Of a stretch of DNA of 20,000 nucleotides, positions 1,412 through 6,674 are shown piece after piece. Source of the stretch: an uncultured virus (IMG/VR IMGVR_UViG_3300015610_000291) (Duplodnaviria > Heunggongvirae > Uroviricota > Caudoviricetes); the IMG/VR virus record IMGVR_UViG_3300015610_000291, positions 60,936 to 80,935 of that record; one strand, 5' to 3'. The translations under genes were made by a program, and so were the position numbers. The notes below the pieces were generated by a model. That model did not search any database. It was not told where the DNA came from and was given only the letters and a program-made list of their open reading frames with translations. Position 1 is the stretch's first letter. Every line of letters begins with the position of its first letter.

Positions 1412-1855
1412 TTTTATATCTCTTATTCAATTGTTTTTAGAATCTTGTATTATTGTATGTATTAACGACCACTCTAACCTGTCTTAATACTGAGAACACA
1501 GAAGTTGTTCCCCTCTCCACAACTAAAGCTGACATTGCATCAGCTAAATGTTATTATTTATTGTTGTTTTCTTTCTTATTATAAAACTGATTTATCAAGT
1601 AGGGCGTATGTTAAACTTAGCTGATACTATGTAACCACGAATGCTTACACTAACGGTTCGTTCAATAGTCTTTTAGACTTCCACCTACCTCTGTTTACAC
1701 CTAACAGATTCGTCACAAAGGGTTGTTATATGCAAGGATGACGGTGAACATATACAACTAACATCTTACGATTGATAAAACTGAATCAGTTGGTAGTCTA
1801 TTCCTGCCTGTCAACTATCGTCACCCTCCTCAACTAAACAGAGACTTTGGGAGGC

Positions 1856-1904
1856 TATGAGACCCATAAGGGTTTCTGTGTATCTCAACACTTCATCAGT
1901 CATA
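1856..1904 (-). ncRNA. Type I hammerhead ribozyme
   Basis: Minus strand reads TATGA-CTGATGA-A-GTGT-TGAGAT-ACAC-A-GAAA-CCC-TTAT-GGG-TC^TCATA. It shows the CUGAUGA and GAAA core, stems I, II and III, and a GUC cleavage triplet (cut predicted between 1861 and 1860). Stem I can extend via CAGAGAC (1912-1918) / GTCTCTG (1839-1845). Confidence 0.85.
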
Positions 1905-1996
1905 TTAACTTGTCTCTGCCTGAGCAACTACTTCGATAGTGGTGTTGCTGTAGGACTATTTTGTCTTTCGACAATCTTTAATATACAGGATACCCA

Positions 1997-2224
1997 TCAA
2001 TAGATGGGATTCTTCTGAGGAGTAACACAACCATAAAACATTTGCTGTTCTACAATACCTTCAAACTTTACATCTTTATTATAATCTAAATCTCGTAAAC
2101 TCTTATTCACTTCATCACGACAGACATTACAGAAAGTTTCCTCAATCTTCGACCCATCAGAGAGTGTTCTCATTCCTGTTGTTCTTCGTAGCACTACGTT
2201 ACAGCATACACATCTACCTGACAT
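1997..2224 (-). CDS. Small Cys4 zinc-finger-like protein
   Basis: CVCC...CNVC motifs. SD GAGGTG precedes the ATG at 2224. It is the only conventional CDS within the RNA island. Confidence 0.8.
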   Translation of the reverse strand: MSGRCVCCNVVLRRTTGMRTLSDGSKIEETFCNVCRDEVNKSLRDLDYNKDVKFEGIVEQQMFYGCVTPQKNPIY

Positions 2225-2288
2225 CAAACACCTCTTATTATTATCTTAAATACTTCCCTTTTACCGACACAGATAAGGGTGATCTGCT

Positions 2289-2750
2289 ATGAGGACAATT
2301 CTTTACCTGCCCTGTCTAGATTGTTTTATCTTCGTATAAGATACTTCTGTCAACACAAGGAACGCATTAATCTTCTCTTACACCACGACAATCCTAAGCG
2401 TACTTGTTAAACTTGTTTTAACATCTTAAACATGAAGTAATCTGTAACGACATTGCAAATAGTTACACAGACAGTCTAAATTAACGCGCTTGGGATAATC
2501 ATCAACAACTGAAAGGATGCTCTCGACCAATTACTTCTGTTTAAAATCTCATTAATTAGATTGACTAACTTCACAGATTAGTCTTGAGGGATATGAATAA
2601 TATTCAACATCCAACACCGTTTAATAGCCTACCTATTAGCACCCACCACACAACTCAGTAACGCCAAGTCAATTGTGTGTTTGTTTCACTACATCTTTCA
2701 GGGATGGTTGTATTTACTCGTTACCCTCAACAACCTCATGTGCATGACTT
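2289..2750 (-). ncRNA. Candidate large structured, multi-pseudoknot ncRNA downstream of the tRNAs
   Basis: No credible ORF. Many complementary segment pairs, several crossing: 2724-2730/2584-2590, 2719-2724/2658-2663, 2695-2701/2509-2515, 2530-2544/2426-2441, 2486-2496/2391-2401, 2468-2474/2312-2318. Boundaries are approximate. Confidence 0.55.
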
Positions 2751-2757
2751 TAAAATT

Positions 2758-2845
2758 TGGCAGAGAGCATCTTAATCGAAAAGAATGCACAAAGTACACA
2801 ATCTGTTTAGCAAACAGTTTCCAAGACCTCTTGGATTTACTCTCT
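2758..2845 (-). tRNA. tRNA-Ser(GCT), divergent T arm
   Basis: Acceptor AGAGAGT/GCTCTCT, G73 discriminator, encoded CCA. Anticodon arm CTGT-TT-GCT-AA-ACAG, long variable arm, T loop TTCGATT closed by T-A instead of G-C. Confidence 0.8.
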
Positions 2846-2846
2846 G

Positions 2847-2937
2847 TGGCGGAAGGTGAGAGGGTCGAACTCTCAAGGCTTTTACACTCGACTGTTTTCA
2901 AGACAGCTCCCATCGCCAGCTATTGGGTTGACCTTCC
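2847..2937 (-). tRNA. tRNA-Ser(TGA)
   Basis: GGAAGGT/ACCTTCC acceptor, G73 and CCA. Anticodon arm GCTGT-CT-TGA-AA-ACAGT, long variable arm, T arm GAGAG-TTCGACC-CTCTC. Confidence 0.96.
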
Positions 2938-3250
2938 AGATGACCTCTTGTGAACACGGGAGAGGTCTTAACCGTTTTACACACAAGACAACATGGTCTG
3001 CTGCACGCAACAGATAAGATAGTCTGCTATCTCGTATCTTTCAATCTACATTTCAACCAACAAATCCCGAAGCAATTGCGTCTATCGGAGGAGGTTAGGT
3101 AGTGGAACACCTATTAAGTAACCAAACAGTTTGAGCGTCTATCGAAGTGTCCCGATACAGCACAAGAGCAACCTCTCATTCTAGGCTTGTTTGGTGTTAT
3201 TTAACTACAAATCCCAACCTTCGTTTATGGTTTTAGGATTACATCCTTCT

Positions 3251-3283
3251 TTACCAAATCTCCTACAATCTGATACCTTCTTT
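3251..3283 (-). repeat. Copy 1 of a 33-bp motif (AAAGAA-NN-TATCAGATTGTAGGAGATTTGGTAA), inverted relative to 4257-4289
   Basis: 3251-3275 is the exact reverse complement of 4265-4289. Identity extends to 31 of 33 bp. Confidence 0.95.
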
Positions 3284-3286
3284 CAT
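3263..3286 (-). CDS. Putative 7-aa minigene MKEGIRL
   Basis: GGAG SD at 3294-3297, 7-nt spacer, ATG AAA GAA GGT ATC AGA TTG TAG. Lies 24 nt downstream of the tRNA-like RNA. Confidence 0.35.
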   Translation of the reverse strand: MKEGIRL

Positions 3287-3310
3287 AGAATTTCTCCGAT
3301 TATAGAAATT

Positions 3311-3398
3311 TGGAGTCCTCACAGTGAATCGAACACTTCGGCTACCTTCCCTCTGTTTAATGCCACAAGCTTAGAAGACTCGTGAGGGGAGCAAGGAC
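3311..3398 (-). ncRNA. Atypical tRNA-like RNA with Arg(TCT) anticodon loop, 8/4 acceptor/T fold and no canonical D arm
   Basis: GTCCTTGC/GTGAGGAC 8-bp acceptor plus T-CCA. T arm AGTG-TTCGATT-CACT. Anticodon hairpin CACGAGT-CT-TCT-AA-GCTTGTG. TCCCCT/AGAGGGA helix sits where the D arm would be. Confidence 0.75.
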
Positions 3399-3429
3399 AA
3401 CAATTAGTGTCGGTTACAATTATCCGACT

Positions 3430-3599
3430 CCACTAGCTAACTGTATTCCGAAGGAGATGACAGAATAAAGTCAGATGGATGACATAGGAGACAACTTTAA
3501 ATCTTGGAGTAGGGTTGGTGTCCCTACGGCTTGCAAGAGGAGTAGGAGTTCCTGATCAAGCACCTTCAGCGACAAGAATTAACATGTATTTTCTAGTGG
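3430..3599 (-). ncRNA. Candidate ~170-nt sRNA with multiple anti-Shine-Dalgarno (CUCC/CUCCU) motifs
   Basis: Starts right after the promoter at 3610-3638. Ends pair (CCACTAG 3593-3599 with CTAGTGG 3430-3436). Five CUCC motifs, four of them CUCCU. No credible ORF. Confidence 0.55.
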
Positions 3600-3609
3600 C
3601 TATATAGAC

Positions 3610-3638
3610 ATATTAACCCACGATCTTCAACCTGTCAA
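3610..3638 (-). promoter_or_regulatory. sigma70-type promoter of the RNA island
   Basis: TTGACA-17 bp-TAATAT on the minus strand. Predicted start near 3603. Confidence 0.8.
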
Positions 3639-4096
3639 CCCCTTTTCAGCACATAAACCAACCAAAACACACAAAAATATCAAAATTTATATAAATTCTT
3701 ATGAAATTTACACCAAATCACGTTTAATTCACAACAACTAGCACCAAATGGGTATAAATTTAATAAAATACGTTCTTGTCTAAGAGCAACACCAAACACA
3801 ATTAGTCAAGATAACGCAGTTAAACCTGTTTACACCTCAAACAGAAGTGATTATATAAATTATACATACAAAGACTAAATGAGATACATTCTTAATAAGA
3901 ATACTACTGTATGTGATCTAATCCCTATTAGATATGTAATAAGAATATTAATATATATACTAATTATATATATATAGTTTATTATATTTATATAAATAAA
4001 TCTAATTGTCTAGAATCATACATAGCTCATGTATTCTAGATATATAATATTATTTGTTTTTAATTAATATAGCTAATCCCCTTACCCCTTGATTTA

Positions 4097-4125
4097 AATT
4101 TAACATCGGTGTCAAGTCTTGTCAA
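4097..4125 (-). promoter_or_regulatory. Second leftward sigma70-type promoter
   Basis: TTGACA-17 bp-TAAATT with a TGn extended -10. Confidence 0.5.
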
Positions 4126-4214
4126 GTACCTAAAATCAAAGTTTTTTGTAACAATGACGTAAGTGTAAGAAAAATAAGAAATTAAATATATTTTGGTTTG
4201 TGTGCTAAAACCTA

Positions 4215-4243
4215 TTGACGTAGCTAAATTCTAGTTGTATAAT
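4215..4243 (+). promoter_or_regulatory. sigma70-type promoter of the rightward gene cluster
   Basis: TTGACG-17 bp-TATAAT. Confidence 0.85.
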
Positions 4244-4256
4244 CGAACTTAGAAAC

Positions 4257-4289
4257 AAAGAAATTATCAGATTGTAGGAGATTTGGTAA
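4257..4289 (+). repeat. Copy 2 of the 33-bp motif, forming a leader hairpin with a TGTAGGAG loop
   Basis: AATTATCAGAT-TGTAGGAG-ATTTGGTAATT hairpin about 12 nt after the predicted start. Matches 3251-3283 on the opposite strand. Confidence 0.9.
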
Positions 4290-4327
4290 TTCTAAACAAA
4301 CTAATTTAGCTAAAGAGGAAATATATT

Positions 4328-4678
4328 ATGGCGTTTGTAGTAAATCAAGATGAGACTGTATCGGTAACAGCGTACTCATTGCACGAGTTTGCATTTGACC
4401 TAGCTTATCTAGGAAGTAAAGGTTTTACACCTTCACTTGAGAATAAGTACTGTCCGTGGGGAGGTATCTCAGGTGGTATGTATAACGCAACATTGGTGAA
4501 GTTGACTGATTATTACATTGACTTACAAGGTAATCACATCAACGCTCCGAAAGATGATGTTGAAGTAGCTGTTGAGAGTGTAAAGCAAGTGACAACATCT
4601 AGTGTTGAACAAGATGTAGAAGAAACTCCACCAGTTGTGCAAACAACTCGTACACGAAATAAGAAAACAAATACGTGA
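4328..4678 (+). CDS. Hypothetical protein with a low-complexity C-terminal tail
   Basis: 116-aa ORF, SD AGAGGA, first gene after the promoter. Confidence 0.85.
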   Translation: MAFVVNQDETVSVTAYSLHEFAFDLAYLGSKGFTPSLENKYCPWGGISGGMYNATLVKLTDYYIDLQGNHINAPKDDVEVAVESVKQVTTSSVEQDVEETPPVVQTTRTRNKKTNT

Positions 4679-4969: not shown

Positions 4970-5782
4970 ATGAGCAATAATGCACAACGTTATTCAGGTC
5001 ATGGTGATCGTGGTGTAAAAGGTCGTGGGAAGAAAGGTGATCGTAATACAAACAACCGTGAAAACAAAGTCAATCACGTTGGTAACTCAGAACCTAAACA
5101 AAAGTGGGAAGAAGATCGAGTAGAGCGTGGTAAAGCTATCCACATTCAGCCAAAGAACTTCCACCAAGAGCAGTTCTTAAAGAGTATGCGACAAAACATT
5201 ATCACTATCGGAACTGGCTCTGCTGGAACAGGAAAAAGTTACTTAGCTTGTCGATATGCTGCATCAGAATTGTTGGCTGGAAACATTCGTAAGATTATTA
5301 TTACACGACCTTATGTTGCTGTATCGAATCGTACAACAGGATATAAGCCTGGGGAAGATTTAGATAAACTTCGTCCTTTCGTATTACCTCTACTCGGTTA
5401 CTTATCTGAGGTGCTTGGTAAAGGTATGGTTGAAGAACAACTATTTCTTGCTGATAAGATTGAGTTAGCTCCTTTAGAATCTATACGCGGTCGAAACTTT
5501 GAGAACGCAATCCTAATTGTGGATGAGGCAGCTAACACAACGATTGGAGAGATACAAGCTCTTACAACACGAATTGGTGAGAACTGTCGTATTTTCTGTA
5601 TTGGTGATTGCGCACAATCGGATACACGAGAAAATGGTTTGAAGTGGTTTGAAGATTTGGTAATCAAACATTACATTCCTGATGTCGGTGTTGTTCGATT
5701 CAACCATGATGACATTGTTCGATCTGAGATGGTTAAGCAATTAGTTATAGCATTTGAACGGGAAGGTGGTTATGTCAGTTAA
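4970..5782 (+). CDS. phoH: PhoH-family ATPase
   Basis: Walker A GSAGTGKS, TRP, G(Y)KPG, APLESIRGRNF, VDEA, TRIGENC, GDCAQSD and DIVRS motifs are typical of PhoH. SD AAGGAG. Confidence 0.96.
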   Translation: MSNNAQRYSGHGDRGVKGRGKKGDRNTNNRENKVNHVGNSEPKQKWEEDRVERGKAIHIQPKNFHQEQFLKSMRQNIITIGTGSAGTGKSYLACRYAASELLAGNIRKIIITRPYVAVSNRTTGYKPGEDLDKLRPFVLPLLGYLSEVLGKGMVEEQLFLADKIELAPLESIRGRNFENAILIVDEAANTTIGEIQALTTRIGENCRIFCIGDCAQSDTRENGLKWFEDLVIKHYIPDVGVVRFNHDDIVRSEMVKQLVIAFEREGGYVS

Positions 5783-5797
5783 TAAAGGAGATTTGAA

Positions 5798-5986
5798 ATG
5801 ATTTATTTTGTATTTTGGTATTTAGTGTTTGTTCTCGCAATGACATCACTATTCGAGTTATACAAGTGTGTTTCTGTAAAAGGAACTAATGGAGAGAAAG
5901 TTGGTTTACTGATTGGAACGATCTTCCGACAAGGTGTTACAGCTATTTTCTTATACGCTGTTTATCCTGTATTACAATTTGTTTGA
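5798..5986 (+). CDS. Small membrane protein (2 predicted TM segments)
   Basis: 62-aa hydrophobic ORF, SD AAGGAG. Confidence 0.85.
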   Translation: MIYFVFWYLVFVLAMTSLFELYKCVSVKGTNGEKVGLLIGTIFRQGVTAIFLYAVYPVLQFV

Positions 5987-5999
5987 TAAGGAGATTTAA

Positions 6000-6674
6000 A
6001 TGACTAAACATAAAATGAATAACGAGTTTGATTTTGAAATGTTACAGATTCCTAATCAAATCTCTAAGCTACGAAATAAAGAGATTGTATCACAGTTTTA
6101 TGATTACAAATTGTTTGGAGACATCACAGAAGTTGATAATTACTTTGATTTAATTGATGTTCTTAACGATGCTTCTCCTGATGATGAATTTATTATTCGT
6201 ATTCATTCAGGAGGTGGTTTGTTAGGAACAGCAGACGTAATCATTAATGCGATCCAAACAACACAAGCTCACGTACATGGTCACATTGAGAGTTTATGTG
6301 GAAGTGCAGCAACAATGGTGTTCTTAGCTTGCCATTCTTACTCTGTTTCACCTCGATCTACCTTCTTCGTACATACTGCCTCGTCTGGTGCGATTGGTAA
6401 AGAGCATGAAAACTACGCTTCAATTATGTTTGATAGAAAACGAATCCACAGTGTAATTAAAGAAACTTATGCAGGATTGTTGACAGAGGGTGAGATTACT
6501 AATGTCTTAAACGGTCAAGACTACTACTTTGATGCTGAAGAACTTATGGAACGATTAGAGAAGTATTCTGATTATCAACGAGAGATGTTTGAATCTGAGT
6601 TAGAAGCTTTACAAAAGGAAGAAGAAGCCGAACAACCTTCACCAAAAGCTAAAAAGAAAATCTTGTTAAATTAA
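6000..6674 (+). CDS. ClpP-like serine protease subunit
   Basis: IRIHSGGG, catalytic Ser in CGSAATMVFLA, His in FFVH and DYYFDAEE match the ClpP/crotonase fold. Confidence 0.88.
   Translation: MTKHKMNNEFDFEMLQIPNQISKLRNKEIVSQFYDYKLFGDITEVDNYFDLIDVLNDASPDDEFIIRIHSGGGLLGTADVIINAIQTTQAHVHGHIESLCGSAATMVFLACHSYSVSPRSTFFVHTASSGAIGKEHENYASIMFDRKRIHSVIKETYAGLLTEGEITNVLNGQDYYFDAEELMERLEKYSDYQREMFESELEALQKEEEAEQPSPKAKKKILLN

Follow-up and report, generated by a model that had tools for sequence, protein, structure and literature searches.

What is encoded by the 460 nt of minus strand (2289..2750) that directly follow tRNA-Ser(GCT) in this uncultured virus? The initial annotation proposed one ornate RNA of about 460 nt, held together by long-range pseudoknots and possibly a divergent member of the GOLLD or ROOL families. 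The window, as used here, is the whole stretch of 20,000 nt that was analysed, which is the last 20 kb of a complete virus record of 80,935 bp.

A non-coding array upstream of the terminase and virion genes

On the minus strand from about 4300 to 1420, only one gene was convincing, a cysteine-rich ORF of 76 aa (2227-1997) whose zinc-ribbon and RING matches were all sub-threshold and whose Atlas clusters are unnamed. The terminase and virion genes follow downstream of this ORF, and the non-coding array lies just upstream of them (Table 1). In every array compared, the array ends at the 76-aa ORF. Two further ORFs, 2675-2953 on the plus strand and 2698-2913 on the minus strand, were rejected; neither belongs to a protein family and both overlap tRNAs. 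On the plus strand, PhoH-like and ClpP-like genes (4970-6674) are transcribed away from the array. Two conserved non-coding blocks lie 3′ of the 76-aa ORF on the minus strand: one at 1786-1583 is mobile and is found 5′ of cassette C in L059, and one at 1593-1460 contains a terminator-like hairpin and matches about 35-39 of 57 loci. In two relatives, group I introns are located downstream of the 76-aa gene (L006 9242-9506 and L056 7163-7429).

The tRNA that anchored the initial annotation is real (2845-2758). It has an 8-bp acceptor stem, a 4-bp T stem, a long variable arm, a G73 discriminator, an encoded CCA and A as its first base, and so belongs to the 8/4 tRNA-Ser class as defined in PMC5389517. 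ARAGORN missed it at the default threshold and recovered it at a relaxed threshold, and Rfam misses it too. A promoter match at 3610..3638 may be used by the array; the match is weak on its own because 12 such sites were found compared to 11.0 expected. The host is probably Acinetobacter, judging solely from RNAs held in common with Acinetobacter phages and a plasmid; among cultured phages, the terminase is closest to that of a Pseudomonas phage (47% identity).

Table 1. Features of the array, in the 5′ to 3′ order of the minus strand (window coordinates; counts refer to the 41 other arrays unless stated).
Feature	Position	Strand	Observations
Sigma-70-like promoter, proposed for the array	3610..3638	-	10/12 consensus match; similar motif upstream in 13/42 arrays
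F1, upstream framework cassette	3106..3204	-	constant closing stem, variable interior; in 16/41
F3, pseudoknot frame with its own insert, then hairpin cassette 3044-2994	2994..3110	-	frame ends common to relatives, interior differs
F4, small H-type pseudoknot	2940..2975	-	shorter form common among arrays
tRNA-Ser(TGA)	2847..2937	-	ARAGORN; 94.6% identical to an Acinetobacter phage tRNA-Ser
tRNA-Ser(GCT)	2758..2845	-	sequence and fold (z -3.7); homologue in L098
A, ~106-nt four-way junction	2639..2744	-	7-bp loop-loop kiss, 2725-2719 with 2663-2657; in 4/41
H2, linker hairpin	2622..2638	-	16 copies over the 42 arrays, following various cassettes
B, 5′ tail and 3′ hairpin H3 constant, hairpin between them variable	2560..2621	-	in 2/41, neither with A
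C, ~20-bp closing stem and ~85-nt core	2423..2548	-	in 15/41, plus truncated copies
Short hairpin 2423-2405 and segment D (2404-2289)	2289..2423	-	one or two putative cassettes; D in 0/41
E, 32-nt H-type pseudoknot	2256..2287	-	just outside the 460-nt interval; in 1/41
76-aa cysteine-rich ORF	1997..2227	-	closes the array; anchor for locus comparison; 58-85% identity in relatives

The listed pairings are not above chance and no known RNA family matches

All eight pairings listed in the initial annotation were found on the minus strand, and the C-A mismatch was confirmed in helix 2496-2487/2400-2391. As a set, these pairings are not above chance. Watson-Crick helices of at least 7 bp numbered 9 compared to 6.5 ± 2.5 in shuffled sequences, and 42 of 200 shuffles were as high. 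With G-U pairs included, there were 77 long-range helices of 7 bp and 34 of 8 bp, compared to 89 and 35 after shuffling, and 71 compared to 67 for helices of 10 bp with one mismatch and G-U allowed (100 shuffles each). The minimum free energy of the stretch had z-scores of -0.34 (minus strand) and -0.92 (plus strand).

We searched for the known families with covariance models. In the window, the Rfam scan at E ≤ 1 returned nothing besides one tRNA, and positions 2240-2770 gave two weak matches only (E 3.2 and 9.3). RT-7 (E 3.2), REN-SRE, alpha-tmRNA fragments, mir-290 and anti-hemB were all rejected as below the Rfam threshold, and no cassette matched any Rfam family or, within these scans, a host RNA. 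GOLLD (RF02032) was not found at the gathering score in the whole genome record, although the same search scored 206.3 bits on the L062 record, nor at E ≤ 10 in 2240-2770. The ROOL model (RF03087) matched nothing in the window, the genome or 2240-2770, the genome search being one without a positive control. The window thus holds a match to neither family, and the proposed kinship with GOLLD or ROOL fell away. The 3′ domain of GOLLD is inherited as one unit, whereas the 3′ part here, D, was missing from all 41 other arrays; and ROOL is an RNA of about 580 nt with six junctions and three covarying pseudoknots, whereas the cross-module pairs here are unsupported. The location directly 3′ of two tRNA-Ser genes is that of GOLLD and ROOL in phages, and is not specific to them. 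The group I intron model (RF00028) found nothing in the window while detecting introns in L006, L056 and L057, and the flanks of the stretch are not halves of one gene. In blastn searches of the 460-nt interval against cultured phages, only tRNA matches or matches with E ≥ 0.5 were returned.

Two more specific candidates were also rejected. The hammerhead core consists of CUGANGA and GAAA with a stem II and a cleavage base other than G. Module A has no Rfam match to this ribozyme, has two bases instead of one, lacks stem II and carries G at the cleavage position, and its CUG pairs locally with a wobble exchange. The model of ToxI (RF02519), an antitoxin that neutralises ToxN-type toxins, exceeded its cut-off in 0 of 5 records, and weak matches occurred likewise in 10 of 14 controls.

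The modules of the stretch recur apart in related loci

We used the 76-aa ORF as an anchor, which yielded 16 virus loci and 40 metagenome loci. After excluding loci with ≤150 nt upstream and 7 duplicates, and adding L044 from a pattern scan, the comparison set consisted of the window and 41 other arrays, some of them close copies (L087/L101). In 31 of the 41 there are at least 450 nt of non-coding upstream DNA; absences in the other 10 mean little because they have less than 450 nt. All copies of A and B and 13 of the 15 copies of C fall in the 31 longer arrays. With an earlier anchor, a 306-aa ORF, the region was present in 1 of 33 loci.

The whole 460-nt unit recurs in none of the 41 other arrays. 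The modules co-occur rarely (A+C in two arrays, B+C in one, C+E in one, A+B and A+B+C in none), and their neighbours change. A is followed by a different cargo in L075 and L077, and B by a different cargo in L083; A directly abuts C in L089, and in L054 the two are about 330 nt apart, with A upstream; in L044, E comes before C. Where A, B and C co-occur, their order is constant. Contigs from public sequencing runs (two of the four runs are probably DNA) show neither expression nor strand, and parts that they leave uncovered carry no weight. They gave the same picture: a 2,471-nt contig from run X1 follows the window from 1563 to 4329 and keeps B as the sole part of the 460-nt interval, and a contig from run X15 joins A straight to C.

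These comparisons separated the eight listed pairings into two groups. Four lie each within a single module and are kept in relatives, while the four that cross module borders all lack comparative support; their partners are absent, changed or part of a local helix. For the pair between A and B, TTGAGGG and its partner (2584-2590) never occur together in any of the other arrays, and base 2725 is changed in 2 of the 4 other A copies and takes part in A's internal kiss. For the pair between A and C, the partner of CTGAAAG (2509-2515) is altered in 6 of the 15 copies of C, and in the two arrays that contain both modules it has one mismatch; three of its bases form part of helix P2, which shows covariation. 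The two pairs between C and D occupy C's hypervariable loop or a P2 strand, and D has no homologue.

A single ornate RNA of 460 nt, or an intact ancestor of which pieces survive in relatives, would require pairing of A with both B and C, and of C with D. The listed pairings do exist, the order of A, B and C is kept, a 6-bp helix (2739-2734/2294-2289) could close the whole stretch, and L062 has a true GOLLD at this locus. Against this, A and B are never found together, all four other A copies have a different 5′ strand for the closing 6-bp helix, and the four 7-bp matches between A and B+C+D were equalled by 11 of 71 unrelated array stretches and by 53 of 243 genome tiles. We therefore regard a single RNA as highly improbable and largely refuted. 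What stood of the initial proposal is a structured, tRNA-adjacent phage RNA locus that is non-coding, lies on the minus strand and has no Rfam family. Its minus orientation, first deduced mainly from the tRNA context, is supported independently by G-U/Watson-Crick exchanges in A and C, and is settled because these wobble exchanges work on the minus strand only. Taken together, the locus comparisons indicate that the stretch is a row of four or five small folded RNAs rather than one giant RNA. This removes a false candidate for a large ornate RNA and shows how such candidates arise, with adjoining small cassettes yielding long-range pairings by chance.

The GOLLD of L062, a distant relative, spans 4122-4491 of that locus (206 bits); it lies within a large cluster of tRNAs, and the same 76-aa ORF follows downstream. 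L063 contains a similar stretch.

Folds of the individual cassettes

Upstream of the tRNAs, the interior of F1 ranges from one short hairpin to several, and F3 has a spacing that presumably resembles that of ToxI. In the four long-form copies of F4, stem 1 occurs in three fully paired sequence versions and stem 2 in two.

In A, five helices are kept in all five copies, with three G-U/Watson-Crick exchanges, none broken and no two-sided change. Hairpin 2735-2730/2711-2706 and stem 2679-2671/2655-2647 are invariant in the five copies, and the GTAACG/CGTTAC kiss extends to 7 bp, with G-U swapped for A-U in two of five. Alone, A folds no better than shuffled sequences (z +0.4 to +1.4), and a scan for its pattern returned only the L054 contig again. 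H2 is likely to serve as punctuation and as a recombination anchor.

C was aligned from 15 sequences, excluding L101 and truncated copies. Its core consists of a variable hairpin, P2 with a variable P3, and a near-invariant P4 with a UGCA loop. Of the cells in its 30 pairs, 97.8% are paired, and 9 pairs are changed on both sides compared to 2.8 ± 1.3 after shuffling (0 of 500 shuffles reached this number; the alignment itself supplied the structure, and the shuffle takes no account of relatedness). Eight of these nine pairs sit in the closing stem, which is the listed 15-bp helix (2544-2530/2441-2426) and contains 16 pairs, 8 of them with changes on both sides; P4 varies so little that it is uninformative. 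In the loop at 2461-2449 on the minus strand, UGCA is invariant in 15 of 15 copies and is flanked by U/A in 13 and by G/U in 2, and therefore the hexamer stays self-complementary; it may form either a homodimer kiss or a closed tetraloop. The P3 loop (2493-2491, minus strand), which is otherwise hypervariable, begins with CCA in 11 of 15 copies as counted by eye. A relaxed pattern for C gave two additional virus matches and two bacterial ones, all four without other C features, and covariance model R1 of C found no distant C in 79 sources. Plus-strand matches of R1 at 25-39 bits were rejected as distant copies of C, since they are really the common closing stem around other cargos.

Segment D had no homologue in the 41 arrays or in any locus compared, apart from a partial piece in run X21, and its pattern scan gave 9 matches, none with further similarity. 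In E, 11 pairs are kept in five of five copies with one two-sided change, which is not above shuffles (94 of 500). Taken together, the paired changes show selection on pairing in C and F4, and suggest it more weakly in A and E.

Cargos are exchanged between phages in slots with common borders

The breaks in homology between arrays coincide with short recurrent elements, namely the hairpins H1, H2 and H3, an A/T-rich spacer and the arms of the closing stem. Among the 25 cassettes that the stem pattern picked up, the closing stem of about 20 bp with one bulged A surrounds 10 types of cargo; the pattern missed the window's own diverged stem and five others. Another slot holds 6 cargo types in 14 cassettes. 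One representative of each of the 10 cargo types folded with a z-score of -2.2 to -5.1, much of which comes from the common stem, and 4 of the 10 have a T-loop-like hairpin. Cargo type did not cluster on the anchor-gene tree (14 changes compared to 13.5 shuffled, in 26 rows on a weak tree with 3 of 23 branches starred). In 10 of the 42 arrays there are HNH-type ORFs, no more than 2.2 kb upstream of the anchor.

Cassettes are also common to phages BS46, Acj61 and Phab24 and to the Acinetobacter plasmid pANC7919.1. In BS46, cassette G and H1 lie behind the tRNAs and before the terminase, this phage also having a cargo enclosed by a stem, and a tRNA-like cargo is found in Acj61, Phab24 and Aeromonas phages. 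E is present at 97% in pANC7919.1 and also in two further virus records, in different arrays with related linker hairpins. We conclude that A, B, C, E and the upstream cassettes are very probably separate units, that hairpins and the closing stem of about 20 bp bound the slots, and that cargos are exchanged between phages, as the distribution of the cassettes indicates. The phage tRNA locus carries a hypervariable, slot-organised array of structured RNAs that are uncatalogued; the full explanation, with the processing and function proposed below, we consider reasonably likely. The literature covered, mostly non-subscription, did not describe phage tRNA loci with arrays in which structurally different RNAs occupy defined slots. 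The supplementary tables of PMC10690425 contained no match to the cassettes, and single cassettes may be catalogued in its alignment and model files.

Several related elements were observed alongside these arrays. Other non-coding arrays of about 1 kb, with related GGAAAGAC hairpins and ending in pseudoknot E, occur in L131 (3060-4110), L142 and L143, which are an Acinetobacter plasmid with phage-like genes and two virus records of about 61 kb. The terminal cassettes of L056, L060, L069 and L077 contain stem-enclosed cargos that end in a T-loop-like hairpin and have no Rfam match, and that of L060 has a 6-nt anticodon-like loop; we take these cargos to be reminiscent of tRNA-like Y RNAs. A tRNA-like element (L121 3006-3095, L122 3501-3592, L098 and L100), called tRNA-Ile(TAT) by ARAGORN in some copies, occurs in the T4-like Acj61, in Phab24 and in this clade, without annotation in those records.

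Proposed function of the array

We propose that one transcript from a promoter near 3610 would span the array, and that host tRNA-maturing enzymes would cut it at the tRNAs and RNase III at the long stems, releasing single RNAs. The length of the closing stem fits RNase III. The conserved linkers would supply the homology arms through which phages recombine during mixed infections, possibly aided by the HNH homing endonucleases present in many arrays. The released RNAs could then work in trans and engage host defence proteins or RNA-processing machinery, as decoys or as ligands. A counter-defence (decoy) role, which we put forward by analogy and at slightly less than even confidence, is favoured for two reasons: strict folds together with rapid turnover would suit targets that vary among hosts, and phage tRNAs and pseudo-ToxI RNA act in this manner, both being described as countering host defences (PMC11555353, PMC3475682). 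Against a decoy role, the ToxI model gave nothing significant and the Rfam scans matched no cassette to a host RNA.

Other roles were weighed against the same evidence. The RNAs might tune host translation or RNA metabolism, as tRNA mimics or as ligands of the ribosome or of synthetases, with no connection to defence. The tRNA context, the atypical 8/4 tRNA-Ser in the same row and the T-loop-like hairpins of terminal cargos fit this idea, but A, B, C and E have no tRNA features and a housekeeping task predicts a stable set rather than free turnover, so that we consider it rather unlikely. A role purely in cis is a further alternative, with the cassettes as processing signals and barriers to nucleases through which tRNA levels and the level of the 76-aa gene are set. 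Exonucleases can be stopped by small pseudoknots, the long stem resembles an RNase III site, and the array always ends at the same ORF. A cis signal, however, needs neither 10 unrelated cargos in one stem nor an invariant 25-nt loop hairpin in C, and many arrays have few or no tRNAs; this role is unlikely. Still less probable is a selfish or near-neutral hotspot, spread by gene conversion through homing endonucleases, with folds kept as relics. It would explain the HNH ORFs, and SegB, which remodels tRNA loci (PMC13096335), is a precedent; but the compensatory changes in C and F4 and the wobble exchanges in A point to selection on RNA pairing of one strand, and E is nearly unchanged in unrelated elements.

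The favoured counter-defence role can be taken further, to an RNA-only arsenal of recombining slots in which each RNA is aimed at a different host defence and is traded among unrelated Acinetobacter phages and phage-plasmids. This extension is speculative and somewhat unlikely. Within it, A would be an aptamer-like junction with a signal molecule or a protein as its possible ligand, C would be an RNA released from its stem and perhaps able to form dimers via the self-complementary loop, E and F4 may be antitoxin-sized pseudoknots, and other cargos may be tRNA decoys. Whatever the function, a natural library of uncatalogued small RNA folds remains. Since swapping defines the borders of the cassettes, each can be cloned and tested alone, and the cultured phage BS46, with its small version of the array, makes the role of non-tRNA RNAs in phage tRNA clusters directly testable.

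Comparison with known systems

Phage T4 carries RNAC and RNAD in its tRNA cluster. Like the cassettes, RNAC and RNAD are small non-tRNA phage RNAs of unknown function (PMC9697503), but they are two fixed RNAs compared to well over a dozen interchangeable cargos in defined slots here. GOLLD (RF02032) and ROOL (RF03087) are likewise structured phage RNAs of unknown function beside tRNAs (10.1101/2024.12.08.627333, PMC5737381), and GOLLD occupies the very locus of the array in one relative. They are, however, single conserved multi-junction molecules (581 nt on average for ROOL), whereas the units here are 32-126 nt long and occur apart. A stable and abundant transcript that forms nanocages is a further feature of GOLLD and ROOL.

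The UG27 reverse-transcriptase ncRNA arrays are also phage arrays of structured RNAs that gain and lose units (10.64898/2026.09.22.753630). In UG27 one common fold serves an adjacent reverse transcriptase, whereas the folds here differ from unit to unit and no reverse transcriptase was seen among the window proteins scanned. E and F4 are H-type pseudoknots of 32-36 nt, the size of a ToxI monomer, and in this they resemble the pseudo-ToxI of phage PhiTE and the type III antitoxins (PMC3475682, PMC5086642); unlike ToxI, they are single copies rather than tandem repeats, and the Rfam ToxI model had no significant match to them. The anti-defence tRNA-rich regions of T5 and T6, together with remodelling by SegB, share with the array a variable tRNA locus with homing endonucleases and RNA products that could out-titrate defences (PMC11555353, PMC13096335). 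The active RNAs there are ordinary tRNAs, whereas most cargos here are non-tRNA. If these cargos are decoys, RNA-based anti-defence would be far broader than pseudo-ToxI, tRNAs and CRISPR-like RNAs.
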